Origin: Methanobacteriota archaeon
GTDB lineage: Archaea > Thermoplasmatota > Thermoplasmata > SG8-5 > DAIRED01
DNA: 64,000 nt
Direction: 5' to 3'
NCBI GenBank assembly: GCA_043799545.1
Contig: JAZDNO010000026.1
Location: 32,001 to 96,000, forward strand
This document shows, piece after piece, positions 7,793-37,903 of the stretch. Within the stretch, counting starts at the first letter, position 1. Every line of letters begins with the position of its first letter. The position numbers and the translations under genes were made by a program. The notes beneath the pieces are model-generated. The model searched no databases. It saw only the letters and a program-made list of their open reading frames with translations, and had not been told where the DNA came from.

Positions 7793-7804
7793 ATGAGAAC
7801 TCTC
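7793..7804 (+). promoter_or_regulatory. Operator-like 12-mer ATGAGAACTCTC upstream of TATA
   Basis: Identical copy at 11027-11038; about 19 nt upstream of TTTAACTA (7813). Confidence 0.5.
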
Positions 7805-7877
7805 AGGTAATCTTTAACTAGTCTTACTTACAAAGTAACTTTTCAAGCGTTGCGCAAGCAACGCCGGAGGCTGAAAA

Positions 7878-8375
7878 ATGAGACGATTGGCAACAATAGC
7901 GGTAGCGCTGGCCTTCGTCGCCCTTATCTTTCAGGGCGGCGGAGCTCGAGCGTGCGGTGTGAACGTCGTGGACGCGACAATCAGCGCCACCATCTCGGGG
8001 GGAAACGCGTCGTTCGTAGTGACTTACCCTCCGGAGACGGAGGTCGCGGGGACGATACGCCTAGCTCCCAGACCGCTGGTCTTCACGGAAAACGAGGAAA
8101 CGGGATGCTGGGAGACCGGGGACGTGAGCGCTCGACTGATAATATCCGGAGGCAACTCGGAGATGGCAACATTGATACCTGCGGGACACGGACCGCACGC
8201 GCATGAGACCGTGCTGAGGCTCGGCGGGCCGCTCAAGTTCGTATGCGACCCACTGACGCCCGGCACGGTTTCTCTCGGACCGCTGCCGCTGATGGAACCG
8301 GACATCCAGGACACGTTCGGCAACGGCAGCCCGACGATAATCCTGATGGAACCGGACATCGAAGACCCATACTAA
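7878..8375 (+). CDS. Secreted hypothetical protein with duplicated C-terminal LMEPDI(Q/E)D motif
   Basis: Signal peptide MRRLATIAVALAFVALIFQGGGARA; DNA repeat ctgatggaaccggacatc occurs twice near the 3' end. Confidence 0.7.
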   Translation: MRRLATIAVALAFVALIFQGGGARACGVNVVDATISATISGGNASFVVTYPPETEVAGTIRLAPRPLVFTENEETGCWETGDVSARLIISGGNSEMATLIPAGHGPHAHETVLRLGGPLKFVCDPLTPGTVSLGPLPLMEPDIQDTFGNGSPTIILMEPDIEDPY

Positions 8376-10984
8376 GCGAGCATGGTACACTGCCCATGTC
8401 TAATAAACTCTTTCGATATTTCTTTTCTAAGGATCTTGTTTCCCATATCGTCAGCTAAGGAAAGAGCCCGCTTAAAAACACTCCTGGCCTCATCCTCACG
8501 ACCGCAAGCATTGCACGCCATCCCAAGGCGGGTGAGGGCTCGGGCGATGGCTTTGGGCTGAGCGTATCGCTCCGCTGCCTCGACGCCAGACCTCGCAAAG
8601 TCCAGCGCTTCCGTATACTGGCCTCGCTGGTAGTAGACCATCGAAAGGTTGTTGTGCACGGCCACCAGCATACGCAGATCCCCGATGCCCACAAGAATGT
8701 CACGCGCCTTTACCAGCGCATCCTCCGCCGATGTGAGGTCCGGTTTCCTTATCAGCACGCCCCCGAGGTTCGCCAGGGCCATCCCCTCCATCGGGAGGTT
8801 TCCGGTCTCTCTCGCCAGGTTAATGGTTCTATCGTAGTAGCCAACAGCCCCCGGTATGTCGCGCACCGCGAATGAGATCTTTCCGAGCGACATGAGCAGT
8901 TTGAGGATCGTAGCCTTCTCCTCGCTACCTTCCAGAAGCTTCAACGCCCGCTCTTTATAATACCTCGCCCGCCCGAGGTGCCCCCGCGCCTCTTCCACCC
9001 GCCCCTTGCCGTAGAATGCCAATGCCAACAGCGGCGTGCTTCCGCAGGATTCGGCCAGCTTCCTCACCATACCGAATTCGCTTTCGGCCATTTCCATGTC
9101 CTCTGTCTCGAGGAGCGATCCCATGAAGTACCGCCCTCTTGCCTCGGATTCCCTGTTCCCGGTTTTCACAGAGAGGGCAATCCCCTGGTCGAGCGCATGG
9201 CGCGCTTCAGCCCTCTTCCCTCTATGCAGGCACAGCTCGCCCAGGGCGCACAGCGCGTCGCATTCGAGCCCGGAGATCCGCGCCTCCCGCGCCAGTGAAA
9301 CTGCGGAGCCGAGCTTGATGGAGGCCTCGCTCCACCTTCCCACGTGCCCGTAGACCTTGCCCAGGGAGACCAGCATCTTCGGGTCAAGCTCCGTCCGCCC
9401 GCCGCACAAAACATCGGCAGCCTCGTCCAGCCCGTGCACGAACCCCTTCCCGACCAGCTCGACCGCCAGCTTGCAGAAAAGGGCGCGCGCCTCTGCATCC
9501 TCCCCGGCCTTGCACAAATGATGGATGGCCTCGAGCCCGCTTGCGGGACCGACCGACCCCGCGTAGTGCCTTCCCAGCAGGAGATGGGCCCTCTTCCTCT
9601 CAGGGCCGGCCCGCCTCTTCTGGACAAAGTCAGACAGGATGTCGTGCACTCCGAACGCCGTGGGCGACACCGGCATGGCCAGGCCGCGCTCGACAAGGCC
9701 GTCCATCCTCTCCCGCCCCACGCCCAGCGGTCCGGCCAAGGCGTCGACGGAGATCGGTTCGCGCGAGACGCTGAGCAGCGTCATCGCCTCCCAATCGGCT
9801 TCGGAGAGACCGGAAAACACCTCGGCGCGCAGGTAACAGTCCAGGCTTTTGTCGACCGCCGGGCTCTCCGCCGGGGCGAGCTTGAGAAACAGGGGGTGCC
9901 CCCCGCAGAGTTGAACCAGCCCTCCGGCTGGCACCTTCCTGGCCGCAAGTATCTTCCTCGAGGATTCGGAATCCAGGAAACCTAGCTTGATTTCGGAGAC
10001 AGTTCCGTCCATAACGTCGCGCCCGTCATGGATTTTCGGGCATCTTCTGCCGATCGACACAAGCTTGAGGCCAGGTTCGCCACGGGTTATTTCCAGAAGC
10101 ATCGACACGAGGTCCATCGCGTCGCCGCGTGCGGCATGGATGTCATCGATGACCACCGCCAGCCTCATCCGCTTGGCGTCCTCCGCCATCGCGCGCCCGA
10201 AGACCTGCAAATCCCAGTCGCCTGCGGAGAGCGCGGATGCCGTGCGGCTGCGACCGAGGACTGACAGGAATGCCCCCAGCTCCGCCGCCACCTGCTGCGC
10301 CGAGGTCCAGCGCTTCAGCGGAATCCAGCAGACGTGCGACCTTGCGGACCAGTTTTTCACCATTCTGGATATGAACGCGGTCTTTCCAATCCCGGCGATT
10401 CCCGTGACAACGAGCATTTTCGCGGCGCGGCTGCGCCACCATTCGGACGCCTTGGCCATCTCCGCGCTCCGGCCGTAGAAATCGCCCAGCTCGGGGATTG
10501 CCTTTACGGCATAGCCGCCGAAACCGCGCTTGACGCGCCGGCCCTCAAACCAGTTCAGGTCCAGCTCCCCGAATTTCACTGACCCGGCGACCTCAGACAA
10601 CGTGCATCCTGCAGGGACGTACGCCGGAATCTCGGAGAGCGGAACGACCCTCGGACCTCCCGGCGTCTCAATCCTCACATCCAGCATCTCGGCCCTCTCC
10701 ATGAGCGCCCCGAGTTCGACCGCGCCAGCCCTGTCGAGCCGGTAATATTTTGAGATGTGGGTCCGGCCGGCCGGCCTCGCGCGCCTAACCTCCACCAGCC
10801 TCGCGCGCTCCATCTCCTTCAGAGCCCTCGCGACGTTTCCCCTTCCGACTCCGGTGGCGTACGCGATACCCTCCTGTGTAACCGTGTTGGGAACGTCGTG
10901 GTCCCTGACGACGCGCTGCTCGCCGAGGTGGAGGACTATACGCTCCTTCACTGTGAACGCGGCCTCTCCCTTCCTTGGCCTCAT
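8372..10984 (-). CDS. wHTH-STAND (NB-ARC/MalT-like) NTPase-TPR regulator
   Basis: N-terminal HTH (TQEGIAYATGVGRGNVARALKEME), Walker A GIAGIGKT, Walker B VVIDD, STAND GxP motif CGGHPLFL, multiple C-terminal TPRs. Confidence 0.9.
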   Translation of the reverse strand: MRPRKGEAAFTVKERIVLHLGEQRVVRDHDVPNTVTQEGIAYATGVGRGNVARALKEMERARLVEVRRARPAGRTHISKYYRLDRAGAVELGALMERAEMLDVRIETPGGPRVVPLSEIPAYVPAGCTLSEVAGSVKFGELDLNWFEGRRVKRGFGGYAVKAIPELGDFYGRSAEMAKASEWWRSRAAKMLVVTGIAGIGKTAFISRMVKNWSARSHVCWIPLKRWTSAQQVAAELGAFLSVLGRSRTASALSAGDWDLQVFGRAMAEDAKRMRLAVVIDDIHAARGDAMDLVSMLLEITRGEPGLKLVSIGRRCPKIHDGRDVMDGTVSEIKLGFLDSESSRKILAARKVPAGGLVQLCGGHPLFLKLAPAESPAVDKSLDCYLRAEVFSGLSEADWEAMTLLSVSREPISVDALAGPLGVGRERMDGLVERGLAMPVSPTAFGVHDILSDFVQKRRAGPERKRAHLLLGRHYAGSVGPASGLEAIHHLCKAGEDAEARALFCKLAVELVGKGFVHGLDEAADVLCGGRTELDPKMLVSLGKVYGHVGRWSEASIKLGSAVSLAREARISGLECDALCALGELCLHRGKRAEARHALDQGIALSVKTGNRESEARGRYFMGSLLETEDMEMAESEFGMVRKLAESCGSTPLLALAFYGKGRVEEARGHLGRARYYKERALKLLEGSEEKATILKLLMSLGKISFAVRDIPGAVGYYDRTINLARETGNLPMEGMALANLGGVLIRKPDLTSAEDALVKARDILVGIGDLRMLVAVHNNLSMVYYQRGQYTEALDFARSGVEAAERYAQPKAIARALTRLGMACNACGREDEARSVFKRALSLADDMGNKILRKEISKEFIRHGQCTMLA

Positions 10985-11026
10985 CAGGGATGAGATTGGC
11001 TACGTCATAGAAAAAGGTATCTGAAA

Positions 11027-11038
11027 ATGAGAACTCTC
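11027..11038 (+). promoter_or_regulatory. Operator-like 12-mer ATGAGAACTCTC upstream of TATA
   Basis: Identical to 7793-7804; TTAAATA starts at 11048. Confidence 0.5.
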
Positions 11039-11078
11039 GCGATAATCTTAAATATTAAGAACATGAACATCGCCACGG

Positions 11079-11243
11079 ATGACGGAACACCAGAGAAAGC
11101 CAGAGCCCCGGTGCGACTGCCACACTTGCAGGCTCGCCAGGATAGAGGCCAGCATCGATTCTCTGCGCAAGTCCGTCGATGACATTTCCGCGTCGGTGGA
11201 GAGGCCCTTCAAGCGCGACGGGAGTAGCGGGGGGCGGGATTGA
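11079..11243 (+). CDS. Small 54-aa protein with CxCxxC motif and predicted coiled coil
   Basis: Hand-translated MTEHQRKPEPRCDCHTCRLARIEASIDSLRKSVDDISASVERPFKRDGSSGGRD. ATG is about 25 nt after the TATA box; stop is 1 nt before the DUF835 start. Confidence 0.6.
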   Translation: MTEHQRKPEPRCDCHTCRLARIEASIDSLRKSVDDISASVERPFKRDGSSGGRD

Positions 11244-11244
11244 A

Positions 11245-11724
11245 ATGCCAGACGCACAACATATTTGCCCCGGCGTCAGCATCATCGTCGAGCCCGAGCC
11301 CAACCGAATCATGAAGTTGTTCTCCGAACTTGTCACAGGCGGCTGCAAGGGGCTCTACATGACGAGAAGGTGTCCGAGCGAAGTCGCAAAGAGACCGGAG
11401 AGGGGCTCCGTGAAATATGTATGGCTGCCTCGCAAGGACTCGCACACGAGGGGAGAGGAGGCTTTCGCCCTGGGCAGCACGATAGAGAGGTTCCTTGATG
11501 AGAGCGAGGGGGGTGTGGTTGCGGTGGACTGCGTCGATTGCCTGAACTCCGCGAGCGGTGGGAAGACGTTCGCGGAGATGCTAGGCGCAGTCTCCCGCAA
11601 GGCCCTGGAGCGGGGGTCGTACGTCCTGATCCAGACATCGGGCATGGCGCTTTCGGAGGAGGAACTGGAGAAGCATGCCGGCGCGACCGGGTTCCCTATA
11701 CTCGCCAGGGACGGGACAGGCTGA
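11245..11724 (+). CDS. Stand-alone DUF835 domain protein
   Basis: GLYMTRRCP, YVWL, IERFL and VVAVDCVDCL pattern typical of DUF835. Confidence 0.8.
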   Translation: MPDAQHICPGVSIIVEPEPNRIMKLFSELVTGGCKGLYMTRRCPSEVAKRPERGSVKYVWLPRKDSHTRGEEAFALGSTIERFLDESEGGVVAVDCVDCLNSASGGKTFAEMLGAVSRKALERGSYVLIQTSGMALSEEELEKHAGATGFPILARDGTG

Positions 11725-12274
11725 GGAATAGGTTGTCAAGCACGGATTGCCGCGGCTCGCCGCTATCTTCGACGTCGGGAGCGTCCGAGGCGTCCCAGGC
11801 AACGAACGCGAAGGCCATAACGCAGAACGCCGCCCACAGCGCCAAAGGCACGTCCGATATCGCAAGAAACGGCCGGCTCCCGGCATAAATGACGGCTCCC
11901 CGCGCGGCCACGAACGTTCCCGTCTCGACGGGATAGGCCATTGGCAGGGCGTTGCCTGCGGCGATGTCGAGCGCCATGTGCCCCGCCAACACGGCGAGAA
12001 CGGCGAGGGCGAGCGTCTGGGCGTTTGCGTTCCTTTCAGGCTTCGCGTGGTCGAACACGAACGCCGCTGCGAACAGCATCGTCGGGGCGACGACGAGGAA
12101 ATAGCCGCTGTGCAACCAGGATTCTGGCATGGACGGAGATGTGAGGAAATGGTCCAAGTCCGGCAGCATGCCGAGGATTCCGCAAGCCAGGGCGAAGAAC
12201 AGCGGGTGCCTCTGCCCCCGCGCCAGCATGGCCCCGACCAAGAGCGACATCGTGAAATGAATTATCGGCTGCAT
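11696..12274 (-). CDS. Membrane metal-dependent hydrolase (YdjM-like)
   Basis: IHF, LPDLDH, WLHS and GHMALD metal-ligand motifs in a hydrophobic protein. Confidence 0.8.
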   Translation of the reverse strand: MQPIIHFTMSLLVGAMLARGQRHPLFFALACGILGMLPDLDHFLTSPSMPESWLHSGYFLVVAPTMLFAAAFVFDHAKPERNANAQTLALAVLAVLAGHMALDIAAGNALPMAYPVETGTFVAARGAVIYAGSRPFLAISDVPLALWAAFCVMAFAFVAWDASDAPDVEDSGEPRQSVLDNLFLSLSRPWRV

Positions 12275-12342
12275 CGCCCAAGCATAGCATGTCGGGACGA
12301 TTTAACCGGTCGCCTACGGTTCCGCTCCGTGATTGCCGCCCG

Positions 12343-12364
12343 TGATTATTGCAGGTGATACCAG
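12343..12364 (+). promoter_or_regulatory. Shared island operator TGATTATTG-CAGG-TGATACCAG
   Basis: Proximal TGA box starts 21 nt before a TATAT element; precedes the 12419 operon. Confidence 0.5.
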
Positions 12365-12418
12365 TGTCGATACAGGTATATCCCTTCCACACGATTGAGT
12401 TGTGAGGTCGAAACAGCG

Positions 12419-13168
12419 ATGAATGAAAAGGACGTCGTGCTGATGAACAAGTTCGTGAACGAGGTCAGCGGCAAGGAAAACGGGCACAGGGTGCTCCTCT
12501 CGGTGAAATACAACCAGATATGCAAGATTAACCTCATCCTCCTGAGGGCTCTCATCGGGGAGCAGGGCAAGCACGGCCTGTTCGTGACCGTGGACCGCCC
12601 GCACCAGTACATGACCTACCTTCTGGACCTGCACAAAATCCCCCGGGACGGCCTGATCTTCCTGGACATAATAAGCAGGTTCTCGGGGGAATCCATCAAG
12701 GTGTGCGACACGGATGTGAACACAGCCTCGCCTTTCAGGATAAACGAGCTGCTAGACCTCCTGGAACACGGCGGCGGCGGGCGCGACAGCCGGACGGCGA
12801 AGATAGATTTCGGGCTCCTGGACTTCATTATGATAGACAACCTCGGAGCCATGCTGTCATACAACGAGCTTGACGACGTCGCCGCCTTCATCCAGAGATA
12901 CCTGCGCCTCGTCGAGAGGTACGGAAAGCTGTTCACGGCCATCGTCATTGACGTCCGGGCCCAGCCAGCCCTTTACAAAGCGGTGCAGGGGCTCTGCCAG
13001 CAAGAGTTTTTAGTCGCAGACGACGGGACCCTGGTGTTATTGGCTACGCCGAATGACTTTCACGAGCCTGAAAAGAAGATGGACGAGATAGCCGAATCCG
13101 TCCTCCTGTACGCGCCGGACAGTCCGAGAATTGGAGCCGCTCATCCGAGGCCGGTCGGGGGCGCGTGA
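12419..13168 (+). CDS. Degenerate KaiC-like/FlaH-like P-loop protein lacking Walker A
   Basis: LFVTVDRP, IFLDIIS and IMIDNL elements of the RecA/KaiC fold; no GxxGxGK. Confidence 0.65.
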   Translation: MNEKDVVLMNKFVNEVSGKENGHRVLLSVKYNQICKINLILLRALIGEQGKHGLFVTVDRPHQYMTYLLDLHKIPRDGLIFLDIISRFSGESIKVCDTDVNTASPFRINELLDLLEHGGGGRDSRTAKIDFGLLDFIMIDNLGAMLSYNELDDVAAFIQRYLRLVERYGKLFTAIVIDVRAQPALYKAVQGLCQQEFLVADDGTLVLLATPNDFHEPEKKMDEIAESVLLYAPDSPRIGAAHPRPVGGA

Positions 13169-13169
13169 A

Positions 13170-13853
13170 ATGGCCGACTCCTTCCAGCGGGTGCCGAGCG
13201 GCATCCCCGGCTTGGACGAAATGCTCGACGGTGGTTTTCCATTCCCGTCCGTCATCCTTCTGGCAGGCAGCGCGGGCACGGGCAAGACCACGTTCTGCCA
13301 GAAGTTCCTTTCATCTGGAGCGGATGCCGGCGAGCAGTGCCTGTACCTCACGACCTTGAGCGAGCCCACGCAGTGGATGCTGCGGTTCGCGACGCAGTTC
13401 AGCTACGTGAACAAGCGACACTTCGGCAAGGAAATCGTGTACGTGGACATGGGCGAGCTGGTCCGCAAGGGCAAACCGGCGGACCTGCTCTCGTTCGTGG
13501 ACGAGCAGGTCGGGTCCATCATGCCACAGCGCATCGTAATAGACCCGATAACGGTCGTCGGCGACTTCATGGAGAAGAACTACCGGAGCTTCCTCTTCGA
13601 CCTCTCGAACAAGCTGAAGAACTGGCGGGCCGTGACTATTTTGACTGGCGAGGTGAAGCCCGGCGACCTGTACCCTGCGGAAGCGGCCTATGCGACCGAC
13701 GGGGTGATACTGCTGAGGCTCCTCGAGGAGGACGGCGCGCGCAGGAAATACATCGAAGTGCTCAAGATGCGCGGGACGAACCACACCTCCGGGAGGCAGT
13801 GCATAGACATCACAAAGCAGGACGGCATCGTGGTGCTCAAGTCGAAGTTTTGA
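13170..13853 (+). CDS. KaiC/RAD55-like ATPase
   Basis: RVPSGIPGLDEMLDGG, Walker A GSAGTGKT, VIDP, DGVILL, LKMRG. Confidence 0.92.
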   Translation: MADSFQRVPSGIPGLDEMLDGGFPFPSVILLAGSAGTGKTTFCQKFLSSGADAGEQCLYLTTLSEPTQWMLRFATQFSYVNKRHFGKEIVYVDMGELVRKGKPADLLSFVDEQVGSIMPQRIVIDPITVVGDFMEKNYRSFLFDLSNKLKNWRAVTILTGEVKPGDLYPAEAAYATDGVILLRLLEEDGARRKYIEVLKMRGTNHTSGRQCIDITKQDGIVVLKSKF

Positions 13854-13886
13854 TGCCGCTGGCTTTGAATCCCGCAATTGAGGTCG

Positions 13887-13908
13887 TGATTATCAGCGGC
13901 GATAACGA
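13887..13908 (+). promoter_or_regulatory. Shared island operator TGATTATCA-GCGG-CGATAACGA
   Basis: Proximal box starts 18 nt before TTTGTAATA (13918); no plus-strand gene follows. Confidence 0.55.
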
Positions 13909-13991
13909 CGGAGGAGGTTTGTAATAGCCCGCCCCGCATCTGTAGATTGGGAGGAAGAACCCTATCATAACCTCTCTGAAAGCCTCTATGA

Positions 13992-14029
13992 ACGGGCTCC
14001 GGCATTTGCCGTGGCCCGTCCCTTTTTTT
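13992..14029 (+). terminator. GC-rich hairpin followed by T7 tract
   Basis: ACGGGC-TC-CGGC-ATTT-GCCG-TG-GCCCGT, then CCC TTTTTTT. Confidence 0.65.
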
Positions 14030-14336: not shown

Positions 14337-14705
14337 TCAGGGTTGATCGAACGCGCTGCCGGGCAATCCAGTTTCAGCGGAGCCGGCCCCTGCGCCGATT
14401 TTCTTCGTCCTGCCATCTTTGAAAGAGACCTTCACGAGCATCTTTCCCCCATCGAAGGAGACTTCCATCCCTTTGACATTCGAGAGATACAAACGGATCC
14501 ACTTGCCCCGCGGGTTGAGGAAACGCTCCTTGTACTCGATGACGCCGATTTCCTCCAGCGCCTTGATGCGCCGGTAGCAGGCCGCGATGGGAATACCGCA
14601 CTGCTGCGAGAGACCCTGGGCGCTCTTCGGGCGCATGCTCGTCGCGAAGATTATCTGGGATGAATACCTGTCCGTCACCAGTTTCGCTGCTTCATCCTTT
14701 TCCAT
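14337..14705 (-). CDS. ArsR-like winged-helix regulator (GIPIAxCYR family), paralog 1
   Basis: KSAQGLSQQCGIPIAACYRRIKALEEIGVI HTH with beta-wing RGKWIRLY. Confidence 0.85.
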   Translation of the reverse strand: MEKDEAAKLVTDRYSSQIIFATSMRPKSAQGLSQQCGIPIAACYRRIKALEEIGVIEYKERFLNPRGKWIRLYLSNVKGMEVSFDGGKMLVKVSFKDGRTKKIGAGAGSAETGLPGSAFDQP

Positions 14706-15119: not shown

Positions 15120-16775
15120 TCACATGATTGGGACGAACTTCAGCCTGGGGCTTCCATCTGAGCTGTCTAAAACGACCTCGTGCAGCGTCGTGTAAGGCTT
15201 CTCCCCGTACATCACCACGCTCCCTCCGACGCGCTCCAGCCTGATGTGAACGCTCGAGGAGGCCAATAAAATCTCCGGAGAGCGCCCGCCGGACGTCATC
15301 CCCACAAAAACGCCCTCGGCCCGGCGCACAGAGAAAAGGTGCGAGTTCATGCCGTCGTACCACGCGGGGCCGTATATCCTCTCCAGCATGTCGAGCGCAA
15401 GGAGCGACAGCATAGGTTTTTTCGATGCCGGGAGGTTGTACTCTATGTTGTCCCATCGAAAGTCCGTGTCCATCTGCGCGCCCTCGACCAGCAGCACGTT
15501 CTGCAAGCGGTCCTCGCCCCCGATGATGTTCATCTCGAAGACCCTCACGTGCTCGTAGAATTCCTCCAAACCCATGTGCCGGGTGAACGAATCCCTCACA
15601 GTGAAGCCGTTTCCCCTGCCCCCCGGGAGGTGCGCCACTCCCCGTCCTTGACCCACAAAGTTAGCCACAATCATCGCCGCCAGCAGCGACGACACCTCCG
15701 CCGGGATGCCCGGTCCCACTTCTACGAGGTTCACGCTTCCTTTCGAGAGGCCTCCGAAGAGCGCGTCCATGTCGCGGTCGCCCATCGATACGGTTTGCCC
15801 GTCCGGGTCTGGAACCGGTGACCGGCGCCCTTCGTGCGCGGCTGTTTTTACCTCCCCGAATCGCTGCGGTTCGAATATCCTTATCCTTCCGTCCAGGAGC
15901 GTGTAGTTGAGATTCGGATGCGGTATCGCCCGACCTCTGAGCTTCTCTATCTTCATCGTCCTTACCCTGCGTCCGGCATGTTCGCCCGTCGAAAGAGATA
16001 TCACTCCGTCGCCGAGGTAATCGAGGGCGGTGGGACCGTGGGATTCCAGGACATAGACGACGTTGGCGCGCCCGCTCTCCACCACGTCCTTCTGTATCGT
16101 GTTGACTAAGCGCGTCTTTGAAATCCCGTACTTCTCGGCGAGGGCATCTATGCTGTCGAAGACTATCAGCGCCTTGCCAGGCTGCGCGGCCTCGACCGTG
16201 TCGTAGGCAACCTCGATTTCCGGCAGGTCCGAGCCGACGTCGAAGGTTATGGAATCGCCGGAAAACGTGCCCGAGCCCCTCGCTTCCTCGGCGCTCTCGT
16301 CCGCCTCCCCGGCCTCTATCTGCCCCTCCAGCTTCCTCAGCTCCTCCCTGCCCAGCGCCGACTCGCTCGTCTCGGCCTGGTTGAAAACCATCAGCAGCTT
16401 CTCCGCCGCCAGGAGCAAGGCTTCAGGCAGCTTGGTCTGGACCCCCCCGCAGGTCTTTGGGTGCAGGACCTTGAGGAAACCCATGGAGGCCATGAGCAGG
16501 TTGCGCTGGCGGTTCTTCTCCGCAAGCCATGGGAACTGCGCGTACAGGGCGACGTCTGATACTCGGCTGGAGATGTACTGGGTGCGCTCCGTTCTGGCCA
16601 TCGTTTCCACAATCTGCAGCGCCAGAGTGGTCTTTCCAGTCCCCGCGGGACCCTTCAGAATCAGCGAGTGCCCTCCCCTAGACTCGAAGAAGTTCGTCAG
16701 AACTCCGGGCAGCGACACCCGCCCCGCGACTGCTGTGCTCACCGCCGTTATCAGCGCCTCCAACGCATCTTTCAT
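15120..16775 (-). CDS. GvpD-like KaiC-family P-loop protein (two RecA-like domains)
   Basis: GHSLILKGPAGTGKTTLAL, YISSRVS..LYAQFPWL, VFDSIDAL, DYLGDGVI, KLRG; degenerate second domain. ATG 16775 preferred. Confidence 0.8.
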   Translation of the reverse strand: MKDALEALITAVSTAVAGRVSLPGVLTNFFESRGGHSLILKGPAGTGKTTLALQIVETMARTERTQYISSRVSDVALYAQFPWLAEKNRQRNLLMASMGFLKVLHPKTCGGVQTKLPEALLLAAEKLLMVFNQAETSESALGREELRKLEGQIEAGEADESAEEARGSGTFSGDSITFDVGSDLPEIEVAYDTVEAAQPGKALIVFDSIDALAEKYGISKTRLVNTIQKDVVESGRANVVYVLESHGPTALDYLGDGVISLSTGEHAGRRVRTMKIEKLRGRAIPHPNLNYTLLDGRIRIFEPQRFGEVKTAAHEGRRSPVPDPDGQTVSMGDRDMDALFGGLSKGSVNLVEVGPGIPAEVSSLLAAMIVANFVGQGRGVAHLPGGRGNGFTVRDSFTRHMGLEEFYEHVRVFEMNIIGGEDRLQNVLLVEGAQMDTDFRWDNIEYNLPASKKPMLSLLALDMLERIYGPAWYDGMNSHLFSVRRAEGVFVGMTSGGRSPEILLASSSVHIRLERVGGSVVMYGEKPYTTLHEVVLDSSDGSPRLKFVPIM

Positions 16776-16804: not shown

Positions 16805-16826
16805 TCATTATCAGCGTCGATTCGGA
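16805..16826 (-). promoter_or_regulatory. Shared island operator TCCGAATCG-ACGC-TGATAATGA (minus strand)
   Basis: Proximal box starts 20 nt before TATTTAA serving the GvpD-like gene. Confidence 0.45.
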
Positions 16827-16835: not shown

Positions 16836-16857
16836 TGGCAATCATTTGCGATACCCG
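16836..16857 (+). promoter_or_regulatory. Shared island operator TGGCAATCA-TTTG-CGATACCCG
   Basis: Proximal box starts 20 nt before TAAATA (16869), upstream of the cadherin-like gene. Confidence 0.45.
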
Positions 16858-16929
16858 GTTCGACAGCCTAAATACCGCAGGTGCCAATCGAGATGCAGAA
16901 TGCGCTGAGTGCGCAACATAGGTGAAAAC

Positions 16930-27549: not shown

Positions 27550-28290
27550 TCACTTGGCGGCGTTGGATTTCCCCGCGCCGGTTATCTTAATGCCGTTGTC
27601 GGTGAGCTCGTAGAATATGTACGACGAAGGCACCTTCGTGCTCCTCATCTTGACTATCTCCATCACTCGCTCCCTGGAGTCCGTGAACGGGTTGTTGCGC
27701 CTGAAGAGCCGGACGACTCCGAACGACGAGTGCGTCACGGCGTTCTTCATCTCCTCCTGGACGTCCTCGTCGTACACCAGAAGCGTAGTCGAGCCGTGCT
27801 GCTTCAGCTTGTACACCAGCGAGTCCATCTGGTCCCTGAAGCGCGCCGCTTCGTAGGTGGCACCGAAGACGCTCAGGTTGTCGAGGATGATGTTGATGCC
27901 CTTCGGAGGCCGCAGCCGCTAGATGAAGTGCTGGAAGCCGTCGGGAAGCTTCGCGCCCGCGGCCCTATCCGGGAGGATTTCCACGACCGTCAGCAGCCCG
28001 TCCGCCTCGAACTTGGCGAAGTCCCAGCCGAACGTCCATGCCTGGGCGAAGATGTCATCCTTCTCCTCCTCGGTGAGAATCTGGAAGCACTTCTTGCCGC
28101 GCTCGCAGGCCGTCTTGATGAAATGCAGCGTGAGAATCGTCTTGCCCGTTCCTGCTCCGCCCATAATTAGAGTCGTGCGGTTCTTCGGGTAGCCCGATAT
28201 CAGGCTGTCCATCTCCGGAATCCCCGTAGGAACCCTCTCGACATGCTTCGGCGCGATGACGTCTTTTTCTCCGTCGATTCTCGTGGTATG
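27550..28290 (-). pseudogene. KaiC/RAD55-like ATPase interrupted by an in-frame TAG and lacking a canonical start
   Basis: ORFs 27919-28212 and 27550-27828 are in the same frame: QHFI-TAG(27921-27919)-RLRPPKGINIILDNLS. Conserved VERVPTGIP lies upstream of the first ATG. SD GAGGGGGG is followed by CAT ACC ACG with no ATG. Confidence 0.7.
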
Positions 28291-30005: not shown

Positions 30006-30027
30006 TGGGTATCACGATTGAGACTAT
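30006..30027 (-). promoter_or_regulatory. Shared island operator ATAGTCTCA-ATCG-TGATACCCA (minus strand)
   Basis: Proximal box starts 19 nt before TTATTCATA. Confidence 0.5.
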
Positions 30028-31434: not shown

Positions 31435-31440
31435 GCAACC

Positions 31441-31818: not shown

Positions 31819-32963
31819 GCCACCGCCGTTATTTGTTCGACTAATTTATCGAGAAGCTCGCCAACTCCGCCCTTGACGTTCGCCACCGTCCGCACGATCG
31901 GCGTCGCGTCGGGCAGCTTCAGCACCGCCCGTATTATCTCCGGGTCCACGGCCTTCGGCGAGTCGGAGTGGTTCGCCGCGACGGCCATGGGCAAGTTCAG
32001 CGCACGCGTCTTCTCGAGCATCTCGCGCGCCCTATCGAACGTGTCGGGGTTCGACGAATCGACCACGAGTATTATGGCGACTGCCTCGTCGGAAAGGTAT
32101 TCGAGCAGCGGGTCGAACATCTCCTGGCCAGGCGTGCCGTAGACCTCTGCGCTGAATCCGCCGTAATCCAGATACCCGTGGTCCATGGCGACAGTCGTGC
32201 CCATTCGGTCCACGCTGACCGTCTGGGTGGAAATCGCCCTCGTCATCGTCGATTTTCCGGCCGCATACGGGCCGGTGACCAGTATCTTCGGGACGTAGAC
32301 CCTGAGCCCGCCGGGCTTCAGTATCTTGATCGGGACGGAAAGCTGGCGCGCATCCGCCCATCCGACCTTGCGCAGGTGCATCATCTGCTTGAGAATCGTG
32401 ATGCTCTCGACTGGCTTGACGCTTATCATGGCGTCGAACTGCCCGATAAGAGCGTTCACGGTCGCTTCATCGTACGACCAGTCGGAGAAGAGCGCTATCG
32501 TTCTAACTTCCTTCGGGAGGGCGGACAGGAACTCATTTATGGCTTTCGGGCTCATTCCCAGAACATCCAGCATCGTGCTCACGTTGTCCAGGACGAACGT
32601 CGTTTCGCGGCCACCGACGGCGTCGCAGACCTGTTTCATGATGTGCCTGGGGTCGAACGGCTGCTGCACGAACTCGTCGCCCTCGCTGTGGATGCCAATC
32701 ATCCCCGAGAACGCGTCCAGCAGGTGCAGGTTGCCCGCCCCGCCGTTGATACTGTCAACGAGGTCGAACTCGCGGCGGATGGCGCTGCCCGGCTTGTTGT
32801 TCGTCAAATAAATCGTGTTCCATCCGTCGCGTGCGGATGCCGCAGCGATGCTTACCCCTATTGGCGTGGGGTCTATCCCCGGCGCGACGGAAAGCAAGAT
32901 GTTGGCTCCCGCTGGGATATCGCCCATCTCGTCGTCAATCAGCTTGATTCCCAAGCGGGTCAT
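31815..32963 (-). CDS. Fusion of degenerate KaiC/RAD55 domain and MglA-like small GTPase
   Basis: N-terminal RLGIKLID..IPAG, IYLT, FVLDN. C-terminal G1 GPYAAGKS, G2 TTVAMDHG, G3 GTPGQ, G4-like ANHSD. SD GAAGGAG precedes ATG 32963. Confidence 0.88.
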   Translation of the reverse strand: MTRLGIKLIDDEMGDIPAGANILLSVAPGIDPTPIGVSIAAASARDGWNTIYLTNNKPGSAIRREFDLVDSINGGAGNLHLLDAFSGMIGIHSEGDEFVQQPFDPRHIMKQVCDAVGGRETTFVLDNVSTMLDVLGMSPKAINEFLSALPKEVRTIALFSDWSYDEATVNALIGQFDAMISVKPVESITILKQMMHLRKVGWADARQLSVPIKILKPGGLRVYVPKILVTGPYAAGKSTMTRAISTQTVSVDRMGTTVAMDHGYLDYGGFSAEVYGTPGQEMFDPLLEYLSDEAVAIILVVDSSNPDTFDRAREMLEKTRALNLPMAVAANHSDSPKAVDPEIIRAVLKLPDATPIVRTVANVKGGVGELLDKLVEQITAVA

Positions 32964-33018
32964 TTGCCTGTCTCCTTCTGAGATTGTATCGCCTGCAGGG
33001 TATTTATCAAGCGGTTTG

Positions 33019-33040
33019 TCGGTATCACCCGTGGTAACGA
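33019..33040 (-). promoter_or_regulatory. Shared island operator TCGTTACCA-CGGG-TGATACCGA (minus strand)
   Basis: Near-palindrome; proximal box starts 19 nt before GATAAATA serving the GTPase operon. Confidence 0.6.
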
Positions 33041-33146
33041 CGCCGCCCGGGGGCGAATCCGCCGCTCGAGTACGCATCTATGCCTTGGTTGGTCAACATG
33101 TGTGGTGCCTCTGACGCAAGCGGCGGTTGCGGCGATTGGCGCGGGT

Positions 33147-34688
33147 TTATCCCAGTCTGTATGCGGATCGTTCATATGGCTCCAATATCCTCGTAGTGAA
33201 TTCCAAGGCCGACTTCCCTTTGTGGTCGACGAATTTCGTCTTGAGGCCGACTTGCTGTCCGAACGCAAGAGAGACAATCCCCGCGCAGAACCCGGTACGG
33301 TACGACTCCAGAGGGTTCGTGCCAATTTCTGCGGCCTCGCCATTGGGCGGGACCATCATGAACCTCGCATTCATCTCCTTGACGTCGAAATCCATCACGA
33401 CCACTTTGTCTCCGTCGGCCGGAGCCTGCCTTGCGAGCGCCACCTCGACGAACTTCAGCCTCGATAGCTGGCTGGCCCCGTCCGGCGGCCGCGACCACTT
33501 CATGGCCATCTTCCAACCGGAACCGTAGAGCAGACCGGACGCCCTCTCCGGGCCGATATTTTCCACCATCGCCCTGCATATTTCCTTGGCCTGGCGCGCC
33601 TGGCGCTCCATCTCGTCCTTTGTCGCGCTCAAGGCATTCATTGAGCGATCCAGCTTGTCCAGCATATCGTTGATTGCGCGCGTGAGAGAAGTGATTTCAT
33701 CGTCACCTTCGATGGCCAATCTCTTCGAAGAATTCCCAAGGGGGCCTATTCCGCCCACGTTCATGCTCAGCTTTAACATCCTCGAAATGACGAACCTCTC
33801 AATAGCGAGCGCAGTCACGACGATTATCGTCGCCGCGAGGGTCACCAACGCCGCCATTAGGTACGCGGAACTCGCCTGGCCTTGCTTGAATATTCCACGC
33901 TCCAACAATATCTTGCACAGAAGGGCGGGTTCCCCGTGAACGTCTTCCATCAGGAAATAACCGGCTATGGCGCTTCCGTTCAGTGGTATGATGTGGAACC
34001 CCGATTCAGCTGACAGCGCGCTCCTCGCTTCCAAAAGGTCTCCGTCCAGCGCAGGATCCTCGAATAGGCTGAACGAAACGTCCATCTGCGTGACGTCCGC
34101 GAATTGCGCCACCAGGGATTCGTCTATAAACCGCCCCATGAGCAGCGTCCCCCGGGCGGGCCCCTGCTCAAGGCTGGTGAGAATCGGTTGCGTGGATATC
34201 AAGAGCGCTCCGTCCGGCAGGAGCACGATTCCGCACGCTCCTCCTGTCAGATTGCCAGTTCCGGTGCTGATTTCCCCCGATTCCACCAGCGAGACCAGCC
34301 CATCGGGCAGAGGCGTCCCTTGTGCGCCATCCAGGTCCACGGCTTTGGCAAACACTATATCGTCATGCGTGTCGGCATACACTATCACATTCACGTTTAT
34401 GATTGCGAACGTTTCGTCGGGGAGGTTTGAAGCGAGATATGTGCCGTTCCCATCCTGGATGAAATCGTACGTGTCGTCCCATGAGGCCCAATCCACGCAC
34501 GTGCGATTGATACGTTCCGTCTCTCGCCCGACGGCATTAATTACCCTCTGGGCATTCTCCTCCACATCCAGCCTTTCGAGCTCTGAGAACCCATCGGACA
34601 CTATGGTGTTTGATACGACGACCAGCGCGACGATGAACATCGCCAGTGTGCTTGCCAGTACCAAAGATATCTTCTTGCGGAGCTTCAT
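33147..34688 (-). CDS. CHASE4-HAMP sensor with C-terminal V4R-like output domain
   Basis: TM, CHASE4 (CVDWASWDDTYDFI), TM, HAMP (DDEITSLTRAINDML), V4R-like tail ending LEPYERSAYRLG. Confidence 0.85.
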   Translation of the reverse strand: MKLRKKISLVLASTLAMFIVALVVVSNTIVSDGFSELERLDVEENAQRVINAVGRETERINRTCVDWASWDDTYDFIQDGNGTYLASNLPDETFAIINVNVIVYADTHDDIVFAKAVDLDGAQGTPLPDGLVSLVESGEISTGTGNLTGGACGIVLLPDGALLISTQPILTSLEQGPARGTLLMGRFIDESLVAQFADVTQMDVSFSLFEDPALDGDLLEARSALSAESGFHIIPLNGSAIAGYFLMEDVHGEPALLCKILLERGIFKQGQASSAYLMAALVTLAATIIVVTALAIERFVISRMLKLSMNVGGIGPLGNSSKRLAIEGDDEITSLTRAINDMLDKLDRSMNALSATKDEMERQARQAKEICRAMVENIGPERASGLLYGSGWKMAMKWSRPPDGASQLSRLKFVEVALARQAPADGDKVVVMDFDVKEMNARFMMVPPNGEAAEIGTNPLESYRTGFCAGIVSLAFGQQVGLKTKFVDHKGKSALEFTTRILEPYERSAYRLG

Positions 34689-34733
34689 GTCACACCCTTG
34701 TCAGATACCAGCGACACCACATCACCCGAACCA

Positions 34734-36275
34734 CTAACCCAGCTTGTAAGCTTTGAATTCATATGGCTCCAGCTCGCGCGTCTCGATTTCGTAGCTGGGG
34801 ACAAGATTGCCCTGGACGGCGCTCACGACCTTCACGCCCACGGGCTTGCCGAAGGCAACGGAGAGGACCGCGGCAACGAAGCCGTGCGCGTACGCCATCT
34901 CGGCGTCGGCGGCGCCGTTCACGTCGAGGATGCGGTCCACCGGAAACATCCCGACTCTGGCGTGATGCCTGGGCCCATAGAATTCCGTGAGCTTCGCCTG
35001 CAATGAAATCATCATTGCATGGCGCTCGAAGAAATCCTCCGCGAAGGACTTCGAGTCTCCCTTCCAGGTCGTGCGCGACGGCCTGGCCTCTTCCAGACCG
35101 ATTCTCCAGCCGCTCTCGTAGATGATGCCCGCCGCCCGCTCGATGCCGATGTCGTTTATCAGCGCTCTGCTGATTTCATTGGACTGGCTCACGCGGGCTT
35201 CGAGACTGGCGTTGGCATGGTAAAGGGCGAGCTCGGCCTTCTTGCGCTCTGTGATGTCCTGATTCGCACCGTGGGTTTTGATGGTCCTGCCGTCTTCGCC
35301 TTTCGTGATTCCTATGCGCACGACGATGTGCCGGACCTCGCCGTCCCTGCGGATTATCCGGTGCTCCAGCTGCGACACATACCCTGGGTCGGTGGTCAGT
35401 ATGGCCTTATGCACTTCATCGGCCACCACGTGGATGTCGTCCGGATGAACGAATCCCTTGGAATACACGTCTGCCGGCATCTGGTAGCCGCCTTCGAGCT
35501 CCGCGGTGGTGCCGTAAAAAGCGTAGAATCGGTCGTTAAAGGTAAAGATGCCGGTAGCGACATCAAATTCCCAGTTGACTATGTGCGCCAGGTCCATCGC
35601 CTGTGTGAGCCGGGCCCGGCTCGTTTTCAGGATTTCCTCCGCAACCTTCCGCTCGGTAAGGTCCACGAAGCTCTCCACGAGATATTCACGGCCGTTCATC
35701 GTCGCCCTGACGACGTTTTTCAGTATGGGAACGCGCTCCCCCTTCTTGTTGATGAGGATTCTTTCAGAATTGTCTATGCTATGTCCTGAGTCCAATACCG
35801 AGCAGCGATTGTCCGCGCCGGAATGGAAAAAATTGTAACAGCGATTGCCGACGATGTCCTTTTTCCCCGAGCCAAGCATTTTCACCGCGACTGGGTTGGC
35901 TTCGACGATCGTGCGCGTCTCCACGTCAACAACGACTACGCCGGTCTGAAGCGCGTTGAATATTGATTTCACCCAGGTCTCGCTCTGCTTCATGGCGTAC
36001 TCGGACGAGCGCGCCTTTGAAATCATTATCTGGTTAATTATGCCCAATCCCATAATCAGTGACACAACGAGAACGCGGAAATATATCTCGAACGGCTCGG
36101 GGCTGAAGAGCTGGGACAGGAACGTCCCCTCCTCGCCGAAGATGTAGATGTCTATGTTGATGTCTATGACCCAGAATACAGCGCTGAGCAGGATTGCCAG
36201 TAAAATAGCGCTGCAACCGGACAATTTCGATGCGCCCTTCCGTCGGCATCCGTGCGTGTTCGTATTCTCGGACAT
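34734..36275 (-). CDS. Membrane PAS-PAS sensor with V4R-like output domain
   Basis: Two N-terminal TMs, two PAS domains, tail GIERAAGIIYESGW...GFVAAVLSVAFG...LEPYEFKAYKLG. Confidence 0.85.
   Translation of the reverse strand: MSENTNTHGCRRKGASKLSGCSAILLAILLSAVFWVIDINIDIYIFGEEGTFLSQLFSPEPFEIYFRVLVVSLIMGLGIINQIMISKARSSEYAMKQSETWVKSIFNALQTGVVVVDVETRTIVEANPVAVKMLGSGKKDIVGNRCYNFFHSGADNRCSVLDSGHSIDNSERILINKKGERVPILKNVVRATMNGREYLVESFVDLTERKVAEEILKTSRARLTQAMDLAHIVNWEFDVATGIFTFNDRFYAFYGTTAELEGGYQMPADVYSKGFVHPDDIHVVADEVHKAILTTDPGYVSQLEHRIIRRDGEVRHIVVRIGITKGEDGRTIKTHGANQDITERKKAELALYHANASLEARVSQSNEISRALINDIGIERAAGIIYESGWRIGLEEARPSRTTWKGDSKSFAEDFFERHAMMISLQAKLTEFYGPRHHARVGMFPVDRILDVNGAADAEMAYAHGFVAAVLSVAFGKPVGVKVVSAVQGNLVPSYEIETRELEPYEFKAYKLG
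35090..35165. repeat. 76-bp identical segment, copy 1 (copy 2 at 36712-36787)
   Basis: Base-by-base identity checked by eye; lies in the V4R-like coding region. Confidence 0.85.
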
Positions 36276-36315
36276 GAGGCCTAGACCGCCCTGGTGTTGT
36301 TAATATCCGCCGTTT

Positions 36316-36337
36316 TGAGTATCAATTGTGGTAACGA
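36316..36337 (-). promoter_or_regulatory. Shared island operator TCGTTACCA-CAAT-TGATACTCA (minus strand)
   Basis: Proximal box starts 18 nt before ATATTAA; ATG 36275 fits a leaderless or short-leader mRNA. Confidence 0.6.
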
Positions 36338-36352
36338 CTCGCGCTGCATTCG

Positions 36353-37648
36353 TCAGGCCAGCCTGTAAGCTTCGACCTCGTATGGCTCCAGCTTGCGCGT
36401 CTCAATCTCGTAGCACGAGGTGAGATTTCCATGGGTAGCTGCTTCCCCGCCCTTCACGCCCACCGGTTTTCCGAAAGACACGGAGAGCACCGCTGCTATG
36501 AAGCCGTGCGCGTACGCCATTTCCGCGTCGGCTGCAGTCCCCTCGTGTTTCGCATTGTCCATCGGGCACAGCCTGGCCCTCGCGACCGTCGAATTTGCTT
36601 CGAAGTGCAACAAACGCACATGAAATGACATCACGGATGATTGGCGCTCGAAGAAATCCTCCGCGAACGACTTGGAATCCCCTTTCCATGCCTTGCGCGA
36701 CGGCCTGGCCGCTTCCAGACCGATTCTCCAGCCGCTCTCGTAGATGATGCCCGCCGCCCGCTCGATGCCGATGTCGTTTATCAGCGCCTTGCTGATTTCG
36801 TTCGACTGATTAACGCGCGCTTCAAGACTGGCTTGTGTGCTGTAAAGGGTAGCCTCGACCTTCTCTCGGTCCGTTATGTCGCGGAAGAAGGCCACGCCGC
36901 ACATCGTCCCGTCTATAACCACCACAGTACCCTTTATGTCCACATTGAATACATTGCCATCCTTCCTAAGACAAGGGACGTTAAATGCCGAATTCCGTTC
37001 ACCTTTGTAAATCTCCTGAAACATTGATACAATCATAGGCAGCTTGTCGCGAGGGTGTATGTCCGCGACGCTCATGGATTTCATTTCTTCGGATGTGTAG
37101 CCTAGCATCTGGCACATGGCGGAGTTCGCATATCGGAAAGTGCGTGTTTCCAAGGACGCAATTAAGATGCCGTCCGGGCTGCAGTCGAAAAGCGTCCGGT
37201 ACCGCGATTCGGATGCCTGAAGCGAATCCGCGGCTTTTTTTCGCTCGGTTATGTCTCTGCTCGAACCGATGATTTCGACGGGCTTTCCGCTCCCGTCACG
37301 TAAGAGTTTCAACCGAGCCTCAACAAATATAGTCGAGCCATCCTTGCAGAACTCCTCGGCCTCGATGATGCGAGCGTGGTCATGGTCAAAGCCTGAAGAG
37401 CCTTCCCTTTCGAGCAGCGCAGTCATATCTTCCATAACTTGATTTAATGATTCTGCCGTCATCATCTTATCGAGCGGCAATGCCATCGCCTCCTCGGGAG
37501 TATACCCGCGCATCTTTTTTACGGAGGGGCTGAAATACGTGAATCTGCGTGACTTCAAATCCATAATCTAGATAACATCCAGGGAGTTCTCGGCAAGGAG
37601 GCAGTATTTCTTCTCGCTCTCGAGCAGGCCGTTCAATTCTTCCGACAT
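36353..37648 (-). pseudogene. PAS-PAS-V4R-like sensor with in-frame TAG at codon 27
   Basis: ATG 37648 (SD GGGGTGA): MSEELNGLLESEKKYCLLAENSLDVI-TAG-IMDLK. The TAG (37570-37568) is at the Trp of the ENxxDxIW PAS motif (compare ENMADTIWLMDL in the 25013 protein). Confidence 0.7.
36712..36787. repeat. 76-bp identical segment, copy 2
   Basis: Identical to 35090-35165. Confidence 0.85.
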
Positions 37649-37688
37649 GTCACCCCGACCGCGCCTTCGCCGTTAATATCCGCCGCTG

Positions 37689-37710
37689 TCGCTATCACGC
37701 TGGATAATCA
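37689..37710 (-). promoter_or_regulatory. Shared island operator TGATTATCC-AGCG-TGATAGCGA (minus strand)
   Basis: Proximal box starts 18 nt before ATATTAA; supports ATG 37648 as the true start. Confidence 0.6.
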
Positions 37711-37903
37711 CGACCCAGTCGCCCAGCTCTGGACGGTATGGCTAGCGCCTGTGGAAAACCGCCTCCCCAGCGGATGAGGGTCTCCGAACCTCCCTCCATT
37801 CCCCCTTGTTTCAAAGACCAGCGAGAACGCGGGAAAGGCCCGGATAATGAGAACTTTTGAGTCGGTTTTAAATACAATGAATCGAACCAACATCACTGGT
37901 CAC

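Follow-up and report, generated by a model that had tools for sequence, protein, structure and literature searches.

The window analysed here is a stretch of 64,000 nucleotides (nt; contig C18, positions 32001-96000) of the genome of an uncultured methanogen-related archaeon (2.06 Mb in 31 contigs, about 59% GC). Between 7 and 39 kb it hosts an island of signalling genes, in which a short inverted repeat with the core ATCA-N4-TGAT, called here the dyad, is found upstream of the TATA boxes of about ten transcription units. An earlier inspection of the DNA letters, denominated here the sequence-only reading, had described both the box and the genes of the island. New gene calls and Pfam scans of the 7-39 kb region confirmed the gene content. 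The island encodes many KaiC-like ATPases and two DUF835 proteins, as well as CheB-CheR-PAS, PAS-MetOD1 and Roadblock proteins, a KaiC-like::GTPase fusion, a CHASE4-HAMP protein and PAS sensors. The genome has also three paralogous winged helix-turn-helix (wHTH) genes, all located inside the island. The genes of main concern are the following, with product sizes in amino acids (aa).

15120-16775, minus strand: GvpD-like KaiC-family ATPase (Pfam GvpD_P-loop 1.3e-17, GvpD_bR2 8.4e-9), a member of the conserved core with its own dyad upstream
16909-19584, plus strand: Big_9/cadherin/Ig-like surface protein, 891 aa, a conserved putative target immediately 5' of wHTH-A/B
19690-20052, plus strand: wHTH-A, 120 aa, candidate regulator with weak Pfam matches to HTH_20, IclR and TrmB, in tandem with wHTH-B across the order
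20118-20492, plus strand: wHTH-B, 124 aa, prime candidate regulator, recognition helix GIPIAACYRRI
14337-14705, minus strand: wHTH-C, 122 aa, the third of the paralogues, with 35% identity to wHTH-A; its own promoter has a strong TATA box and only a TGAT half-site (14775)

The GvpD-type ATPase gene is present in the locus with a synteny that is kept in 9 relatives. Neither GvpE nor gvpA families were found among the Pfam matches of the island proteins, and the remaining genome was not searched for either.

Seventeen boxes had been placed at a fixed distance from TATA-like elements by the sequence-only reading. All exist. The 17 coordinates read TGAT, CGAT or TGAG, and an AT-rich 8-mer is found 19 nt (18-20) downstream of their first base. 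In the inverted repeat, the right half corresponds to the proximal TGAT; the extended form of the repeat is TGATAATCA-N4-TGATAwC, and the form previously indicated as best, TGA-N3-TCA-N4-TGA with core ATCA-N4-TGAT, was borne out. The left half ATCA is found at N4 in 11/17 sites, with at least 6 of the 8 core positions matched, and five of these eleven carry an extra TGAT 13 nt upstream, resulting in the structure TGAT-w-ATCA-N4-TGATA. The eleven dyads, and two of the associated TATA boxes, are listed below; conservation refers to the same-genus comparison genome (G001), unless other genomes are named.

12330-12362, plus strand (site 12356): three TGAT boxes 13 nt apart (TGATTGCC..TGATTATT..TGATACC) before the unk249-KaiC2 operon; dyad core 6/8; kept
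13892-13906, plus strand (site 13900): orphan dyad ATCAgcggCGATAAC, 7/8, preceded by TGAT; very weak TATA box
16841-16855, plus strand (site 16849): dyad ATCAtttgCGATACC before the Big9 cadherin/Ig-like surface protein gene, 7/8
16807-16821, minus strand (site 16813): dyad ATCG....TGATAAT before the divergent GvpD-like ATPase gene, 7/8
19622-19636, plus strand (site 19630): dyad ATCAcatcTGATTTT before wHTH-A, 8/8; kept in G001, G002, G005 and G011
20042-20056, plus strand (site 20050): dyad ATCAgccgTGATAGC before wHTH-B, 8/8; full form TGATAATCA-N4-TGATAGC from 20037
20069-20076, plus strand: TATA box AATATAAG of the wHTH-B promoter
21859-21873, minus strand (site 21865): dyad CTCA....TGATGCC before a 114-aa, apparently leaderless gene, 7/8, with a further TGAT 13 nt upstream; kept
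21840-21847, minus strand: TATA-like TTAGATAC of the 114-aa gene promoter; matrix score -0.3, the worst of the set
30008-30022, minus strand (site 30014): dyad CTCA....TGATACC before the DUF835b-KaiC3 operon, 7/8; kept
33021-33035, minus strand (site 33027): dyad ACCA....TGATACC before the KaiC-like::GTPase-Roadblock operon, 7/8
36318-36332, minus strand (site 36324): dyad ACCA....TGATACT before a PAS/V4R-like sensor gene, 7/8; promoter paralogous to that of 37697
37691-37705, minus strand (site 37697): dyad ATCC....TGATAGC before the PAS2 gene, 7/8; TGAT at -13

The proximal-half TGA of the dyad preceding wHTH-B doubles as the stop codon of wHTH-A; this dyad is kept in 11 relatives as well as in G001. 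The real start codon of the KaiC-like::GTPase-Roadblock operon is located near 32968. The full dyad is missing at the remaining 6/17 sites, in agreement with the earlier remark that several are half-sites only. Three are of the TGAGAAC type (7794, 11028, 37848), and three are lone half-sites accompanied by strong TATA boxes (14775, 21900, 28350).

The position of the box was compared with that of general promoter signals. A TATA matrix, trained by expectation maximization (EM) on 870 upstream regions, converged on T[TA]TA[TA]ATA[AC], and its matches peak 30-50 nt before start codons. The 533 strong promoters anchored on this matrix share a B recognition element (BRE) of consensus CGAAA and a proximal A/T signal, and have zero information upstream of -7 from the TATA box. 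The box at about -19 is therefore not part of the general promoter, and the idea that it is a general promoter element or an extended BRE was ruled out. When the 17 sites are aligned on the box, C is found at +12 in 10 and G at +13 in 14; given the TATA boxes of the sequence-only reading, this CG coincides with the expected location of the BRE CG. TATA boxes of dyad promoters are mostly weak, with a median of 3.4 bits vs a genome median of 7.3, and those of the six other sites score 5.8-10.5 bits.

The claimed concentration of boxes in the island was confirmed by automatic TATA calls. TGAT starts at -20 to -16 in 7/17 island promoters vs 14/731 elsewhere, and TGAT at -20 was the strongest signal of the island in a scan of every 4-mer in every 5-nt position window. 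In the positional-bias test only 2/1000 random sets of 17 promoters reached seven TGAT (p about 0.002). The 5-mer TGATA is found in 5/17 island promoters, a value reached by 1/1000 random sets. Loose dyads followed by a TATA box show genome-wide a modest excess at offsets 17-19 (82 observed vs about 52 expected from other offsets).

The box is under selection. In the comparison with G001, 67 of the 72 dyad core positions are identical (93%), vs 522/867 of other intergenic columns (60%; Fisher p = 1e-9), and the TATA 8-mers are identical at 65/72 positions (90%; p = 5e-8). Both the box, proposed earlier as a real cis-element, and the TATA boxes picked by eye are therefore selected. Also the reported absence of the box before hef was found to be correct, as no box accompanies the conserved hef promoter, ATTATATC, located about 25 nt 5' of the GTG codon. 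A TGATAAT about 100 nt upstream of hef was discarded as a candidate hef box, since it is part of the TATA region of the divergent gene and the dyad is not kept in G001.

Eleven order-level genomes share a conserved core, in which the GvpD-like gene is divergent from the cadherin-like gene, followed in turn by wHTH-A and wHTH-B. Genes encoding wHTH-C plus KaiC, unk249 plus KaiC2, HTH-STAND-TPR and PAS-MetOD1 proteins are found near the core. The dyad is embedded in otherwise unalignable intergenic DNA before wHTH-B in 11/11 genomes, and before wHTH-A in the closer ones. The cadherin-like gene of relatives is preceded by TGATAATCA-N4-TGATAtccgt.cagataccTTAAAA, exactly 19 nt to the TATA box, and the 133-nt region separating the GvpD-like and cadherin-like genes hosts in 8 relatives a second perfect dyad, ATTATCA-N4-TGATAAT, assigned to the GvpD-like gene. 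Perfect ATCA-N4-TGATAA sequences are found 18-20 nt before the TATA box of unk249-KaiC2 in relatives. The following spacer and spacing counts are independent of the sites of the window. Over 164 kb around the wHTH genes of the 11 order-level relatives, perfect ATCA-Nx-TGAT repeats number 30 at N4 vs 1-10 at each other spacer from N0 to N9. Class-level relatives of other families (24 kb) have 9 at N4 vs 0-3 at other spacers, with a distance to TATA of 18-21 nt. Ten of 18 dyad-TATA pairs of relatives lie at matrix offsets 17-19. A matrix built from relatives only ranks the wHTH-A promoter 1st and the wHTH-B promoter 8th in the whole genome.

The element exists, is position-locked to the TATA box, is under purifying selection, and co-occurs with wHTH genes across the class. 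We hold with high confidence that it is a functional operator. It is a conserved class-wide sequence tied to the adjacent wHTH pair, and very probably the binding site of that pair.

The wHTH genes had been named earlier as candidate regulators, and their standing has improved: their own promoters carry the best copies of the dyad, and box and genes are found together throughout the class. The three proteins are 35-38% identical and share a recognition helix of the type IPIA(A/T)CYR(R/K). Homologues of wHTH-A were found by protein search in 25/40 relatives, mostly as tandem A-B pairs; wHTH-B is the more conserved paralogue, with 59-80% identity across the class. The structure model of wHTH-B (predicted local distance difference test score 86) has a winged helix-turn-helix fold resembling ArsR/Phr structures. 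The nearest solved fold is Phr (2P4W; Foldseek E = 2e-4, template modelling score 0.61 over about 98 residues), followed by the ArsR-like PH1932 (2CWE, 1.2e-3) and by many ArsR/SmtB chains. At the sequence level the assignment to families is loose. The search of wHTH-B against solved structures returned nothing significant, and all NCBIfam scores for the curated families Phr, ArsR/SmtB and Lrs14/Sta1 fall far below cut-offs. Pfam HTH_20 is marginal (wHTH-A 28.8 vs a cut-off of 27, B and C below), PF01978 (TrmB) is matched by wHTH-A only (26.8 bits vs 25.6), and NCBIfam TrmB is not matched (11.6 bits vs a cut-off of 600). The predicted complex of wHTH-A and wHTH-B (score 0.01, mark 0.32) is uninformative either way.

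A different conserved element was noticed before a wHTH-C-like, KaiC-paired gene of another family (L032:5033-5200, L033:8510-8679, L036:10445-10610, L037:10110-10280). It is a direct repeat, TTTCTAT(T/C)-N13-TTTCTAT, located just 5' of the TATA box, and suggests that this paralogue may have an operator of its own.

Part of the region is covered by assembled contigs of one groundwater metatranscriptome. The metatranscriptome runs X2 and X3 contain next to nothing of this stretch, and island parts devoid of RNA are no evidence of silence. The promoter with the worst TATA box (-0.3) precedes a 114-aa open reading frame (ORF; 21472-21817, minus strand) that encodes hydrophobic N- and C-termini and has no Pfam match; only the promoter, not the ORF, aligns with G001. 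An RNA contig ends at 21817, 30 nt from the TATA start and one base before the ATG at 21816, and continues into adapter sequence, which we take to be Illumina adapter. The mRNA appears to be leaderless. Despite the poor TATA box, the contigs of this gene have a depth of about 2100-2500 vs 2-9 for neighbouring genes. Another RNA contig starts at 20098, and the predicted start of wHTH-B is 20098/20099 (TATA start +29/30). Relative to both contig-derived starts, the proximal TGAT is located at -48, and the centre of the dyad near -50.

These data are best accommodated by a model in which the box would be the operator of an autoregulated, uncharacterised family of ArsR/Phr-like winged-helix proteins of about 120 aa, represented in the window by wHTH-A, wHTH-B and possibly wHTH-C. 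A dimer would read the inverted repeat ATCA-N4-TGAT, and additional TGAT copies 13 nt upstream would let more subunits bind. With the dyad centre near -50 and the proximal half starting 19 nt before the TATA box, about 5 nt would be left to the BRE. The bound protein may help transcription factor B (TFB) and TATA-binding protein (TBP) onto promoters with intrinsically weak TATA boxes, acting as an activator. Within the island, it is proposed to control its own genes, those for the adjacent cadherin-like surface protein and for the GvpD-like ATPase, and several KaiC/DUF835/GTPase/PAS operons; a small number of sensor genes located outside the island would also be targets. An activator recruiting TFB/TBP would fit because the spacing is rigid (±1 nt), about 5 nt separate the dyad from the BRE, the TATA boxes are weak, and the transcript from the weakest of them is abundant. 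In archaea, a regulator activates when its site is upstream of BRE/TATA and represses when the site is downstream, as described for TrmBL1 (PMC4706686); Tar (PMC6737238) and GvpE (PMC2241852) are further precedents of activators bound upstream.

The three parts of the model do not have the same weight. Adjacency, autoregulatory placement and co-occurrence point to wHTH-A/B, with or without wHTH-C, as the probable binder of the dyad. That the bound regulator activates is fairly likely, judging from position and from the weakness of the TATA boxes; on these grounds the activation proposed by the sequence-only reading is plausible. The joint model of an autoregulated ArsR/Phr-like wHTH pair that binds the upstream dyad and activates weak promoters is, allowing for the dependence of the three parts, moderately likely.

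Several observations weigh against it. Which protein binds the dyad, and that binding activates, are both points that we infer. Assembled contigs cannot rigorously define starts or expression levels, and the RNA support is suggestive only. Promoters 36324 and 37697 are clear paralogues, 33027 being probably a third, and site counts overstate the number of independent origins. The genome is GC-rich and the majority of its sites are degenerate (7/8 core), and in a genome-wide count of TATCA-Nx-TGATA the N4 spacer is barely ahead of the others. The matrix of the AT-rich relatives, applied to the GC-rich genome, yields an island enrichment of only about 3-4-fold together with many AT-rich false matches. 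The orphan dyad at 13892-13906 has no counterpart in G001, and is followed by no called gene, but only by a 30-codon ORF; it could be the promoter element of an unannotated small transcript, or a decaying site. Across 41 genomes, WATCA-N4-TGATW and its N6 control number 446/372 where a wHTH homologue is present and 152/231 where none was detected (chi-square about 23). This comparison is supportive only, since related genomes do not provide phylogenetic independence, and the gene may have been missed in incomplete ones.

The same element and the same binder could serve mainly repression, or have a dual function. The protein would in this case oligomerise over BRE and TATA from the extra TGAT repeats, or keep one of two divergent promoters off and the other on. 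Phr, the nearest solved fold, is a heat-shock regulator that represses from an operator overlapping the start site, and most wHTH proteins of the ArsR type are repressors. The TGAT boxes repeated every 13 nt at 12330-12362 suggest a spreading multimer, and the dyads of the GvpD-like and cadherin-like genes sit in a divergent region of 133 nt. Both TrmBL1 and SurR have been cited to activate one promoter and repress the other from a single region (PMC4706686). Repression as the main function, or a dual function, is nevertheless unlikely. A gap of about 5 nt is left between dyad and BRE, and neither BRE, TATA nor start site is overlapped. The ±1 nt spacing to TATA, maintained class-wide, is what a face-of-helix contact with the pre-initiation complex would demand, and is not needed for simple occlusion. 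Dyad promoters have weak TATA boxes, yet one of them is very highly represented in RNA.

A real operator may alternatively be bound by another regulator encoded elsewhere, or by wHTH-C alone, the wHTH-A/B genes being just conserved targets. HTH proteins of many other kinds are encoded in the genome; the TrmBL1 motif, too, has TATCA/TGATA as its half-site (PMC4706686), wHTH-A has a weak TrmB Pfam match, and several genomes with no detected wHTH homologue are still rich in N4 dyads. Such a binder is quite unlikely if one considers that the best and most conserved copies of the dyad precede wHTH-A and wHTH-B in every family examined, that N4 enrichment tracks the presence of the wHTH family, and that the three paralogues of the genome all lie within the island where sites cluster. 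An origin involving no dedicated regulator, in which promoters were duplicated with paralogous genes and chance TGAT sequences were picked by eye near AT-rich stretches, is strongly disfavoured and very improbable. Promoters 36324 and 37697 (and 33027) do align beyond the box, and 6/17 sites are half-sites. A de novo EM search of the 16 intergenic regions of the island recovered GATTaTCGCnngTGAT with a likelihood of 57.9, within the range of 25 length-matched control sets (54 ± 4.5), but the test is low in power and was left unused. The dyad precedes, however, non-homologous genes, such as those for the surface protein, the ATPase, the wHTH proteins and the small leaderless product; identical dyads at identical spacing recur in distant genomes with unalignable flanks; and the core conservation (93% vs 60% of flanking bases) and the scan (p about 0.002) also speak against chance. 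Activation by the wHTH pair remains the reading that we prefer.

The reach of the dyad differs from that initially envisaged. One activator family had been supposed to control all sites as one regulon. A selected element does exist, but the 17 sites mix two operators (the second at 7794, 11028 and 37848) plus half-sites (14775, 21900, 28350). The whole KaiC/DUF835/PAS/CheBR set does not emerge as the conserved core of the regulon, which is limited to the GvpD-like, cadherin-like, wHTH-A, wHTH-B and unk249-KaiC2 genes. Candidate sites are found beyond the island, too. Dyads with a correctly offset TATA box precede a CHASE4 paralogue (C30:66937), a dCache-HAMP sensor gene (C6:40922), and a gene of unknown function encoding 471 aa, divergent from a PAS gene (C1:78383). 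The first of these (C30:66937-66959) consists of the dyad GTTATCGtcccTGATACC and a TATA-like CTTTAAAG at island spacing, and the gene encodes a 510-aa CHASE4 protein, paralogue of the product of the CHASE4-HAMP gene of the island. The sites preceding the genes for L10e, LonB, UDP-glucose dehydrogenase, an aminotransferase and RsgA were set aside as probable chance matches. The matrix of relatives could not be used for assigning membership, since AT-rich regions dominate its matches (contig C13 is an example), and the island accounts for only 9/255.

A second operator in the DNA of the window, TGAGAACTCTC, is a palindrome separate from the dyad. The related features are listed below.

7794-7805, plus strand: palindrome TGAGAACTCTCA, 19 nt before the TATA box of a gene for a 162-aa protein; kept in G001
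8372-10984, minus strand: HTH-STAND-TPR protein, 870 aa (Pfam), the likely binder of the TGAGAACTCTCA palindrome
11028-11039, plus strand: palindrome TGAGAACTCTCG, upstream of a plus-strand TATA box and, on the divergent side, closely 3' of the HTH-STAND-TPR TATA box
37848-37861, plus strand: TGAGAACTTTTGAG, of the TGAGAAC type, a misfit to the dyad (leave-one-out score -2.5)

Matches of 11/12 or better are limited, within the window, to TGAGAACTCTCA (7794) and TGAGAACTCTCG (11028). The placement of the palindrome just 3' of the HTH-STAND-TPR TATA box is kept in relatives, as TGAGCACTCTCA in L029 and TGAGCATGCTCA in L034, and also in G001. The TGAGAACTCTCA sites form a separate small regulon, and would most simply be autorepressor/activator sites of the STAND protein. 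The TGAGAACTCTCG palindrome was noticed, almost unchanged and with identical flanks (aaaaTGAGAACTCTCGtgata..TTAAATAG), a third time outside the window, at the end of another contig of the same genome (C20:24652-24663). It precedes a TATA box and a gene, the product of which begins, as judged by eye, with a hydrophobic, signal-peptide-like stretch.

Other features of the island deserve mention. Downstream of the 28350 half-site, two adjoining ORFs of 92 and 97 aa (27550-28212, minus strand) match KaiC, the first in the C-terminal and the second in the N-terminal part, and are a broken or split KaiC gene. After the 37697 promoter, an ATG is found at about 37633 (37565-37640, minus strand), but a stop is met in its frame after about 30 codons, 5' of the called PAS2 start at 37564. 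The beginning of this stretch, ATGTCGGAAGAAG, is kept in G001. Either a frameshifted N-terminus or a small ORF upstream of PAS2 may be present here. A DUF3800-X RNA, a known family (Rfam RF02984; 69.5 bits vs a gathering score of 38.2), is located at 21323-21394 on the minus strand, directly after the DUF3800 gene (20679-21320) and convergent to it.

What the dyad system offers is a class-wide operator at a rigid distance of 19 nt from the TATA box, with two or three candidate binders and targets having weak TATA boxes. Since start sites can be predicted, and two already fit RNA data, the recruitment of TBP/TFB by archaeal activators can be tested on it. For the poorly understood "kinase-free" signalling islands of Thermoplasmata, made of KaiC-like, DUF835, GTPase and PAS proteins, it is a first point of entry into their regulation, and it indicates as main outputs a cadherin-like surface protein and a small, apparently very highly expressed protein with hydrophobic termini.

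Among known systems, TrmBL1 of Pyrococcus furiosus recognizes the Thermococcales glycolytic motif TATCAC-N5-GTGATA, a palindrome with the same TATCA/TGATA half-site, and controls a small regulon defined by motif position (PMC4706686). ATCA and TGAT are, in contrast, separated by 7 nt in the glycolytic motif and by 4 here, and the loci of relatives have 30 repeats at N4 vs 10 at N7. TrmBL1 is a large sugar-sensing protein of the TrmB type, which has an N-terminal TrmB domain and a C-terminal sugar-binding domain, whereas the candidates described here are 120-124 aa long; the targets are genes of sugar metabolism in one case, signalling and surface genes in the other.

The GvpE upstream activating sequence of haloarchaeal gas-vesicle clusters, TGAAACGG-n4-TGAACCAA, is located next to the BRE, at a distance that is critical (PMC2241852). 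It is similarly bipartite with a 4-nt spacer, activator sites are common to two divergent promoters, and the locus also includes a gene for a GvpD-type P-loop ATPase. It is, however, a direct repeat directly adjoining the BRE, and not an inverted repeat about 5 nt off, and the candidate regulator is here a winged-helix protein. That the GvpD-like ATPase antagonises the wHTH proteins is suggested only by analogy with GvpD/GvpE. It would be a bold and rather improbable extension of this analogy to regard the ATPase, wHTH-A/B and the dyad as an ancient class-wide activator/anti-activator switch with a winged-helix activator, in which KaiC-family signalling would act on the activator, by setting its stability or activity, and thereby control the cadherin-like surface adhesin and the kinase-free sensor network. 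If true, it would provide a general and experimentally tractable model for archaeal class-I-like activation centred near -50.

Tar (TK0271) of Thermococcus kodakarensis, for which binding and activation were shown experimentally, recognizes TGGACA-N8-TGTCCA upstream of BRE/TATA (PMC6737238). It is likewise a small archaeal regulator activating several operons from a palindrome in that position, and differs in sequence, spacer and protein family, and in having a regulon of amino-acid biosynthesis. Phr (2P4W) and PH1932 (2CWE/1ULY), the best structural matches to the wHTH-B model, feature a winged helix followed by extra beta strands, but sequence identity is about 20%, no family match is seen at the sequence level, and Phr is about 200 aa long. 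Like the sites of archaeal upstream activators, the dyad lies 5' of BRE/TATA without overlap, at a constrained distance from the core promoter; cognate binding and increased transcription are putative, on the grounds of co-occurrence, placement, weak TATA boxes and RNA depth. The dyad system belongs to a known kind, that of the archaeal upstream operator with an autoregulated winged-helix regulator, and has an unusually clean comparative support.

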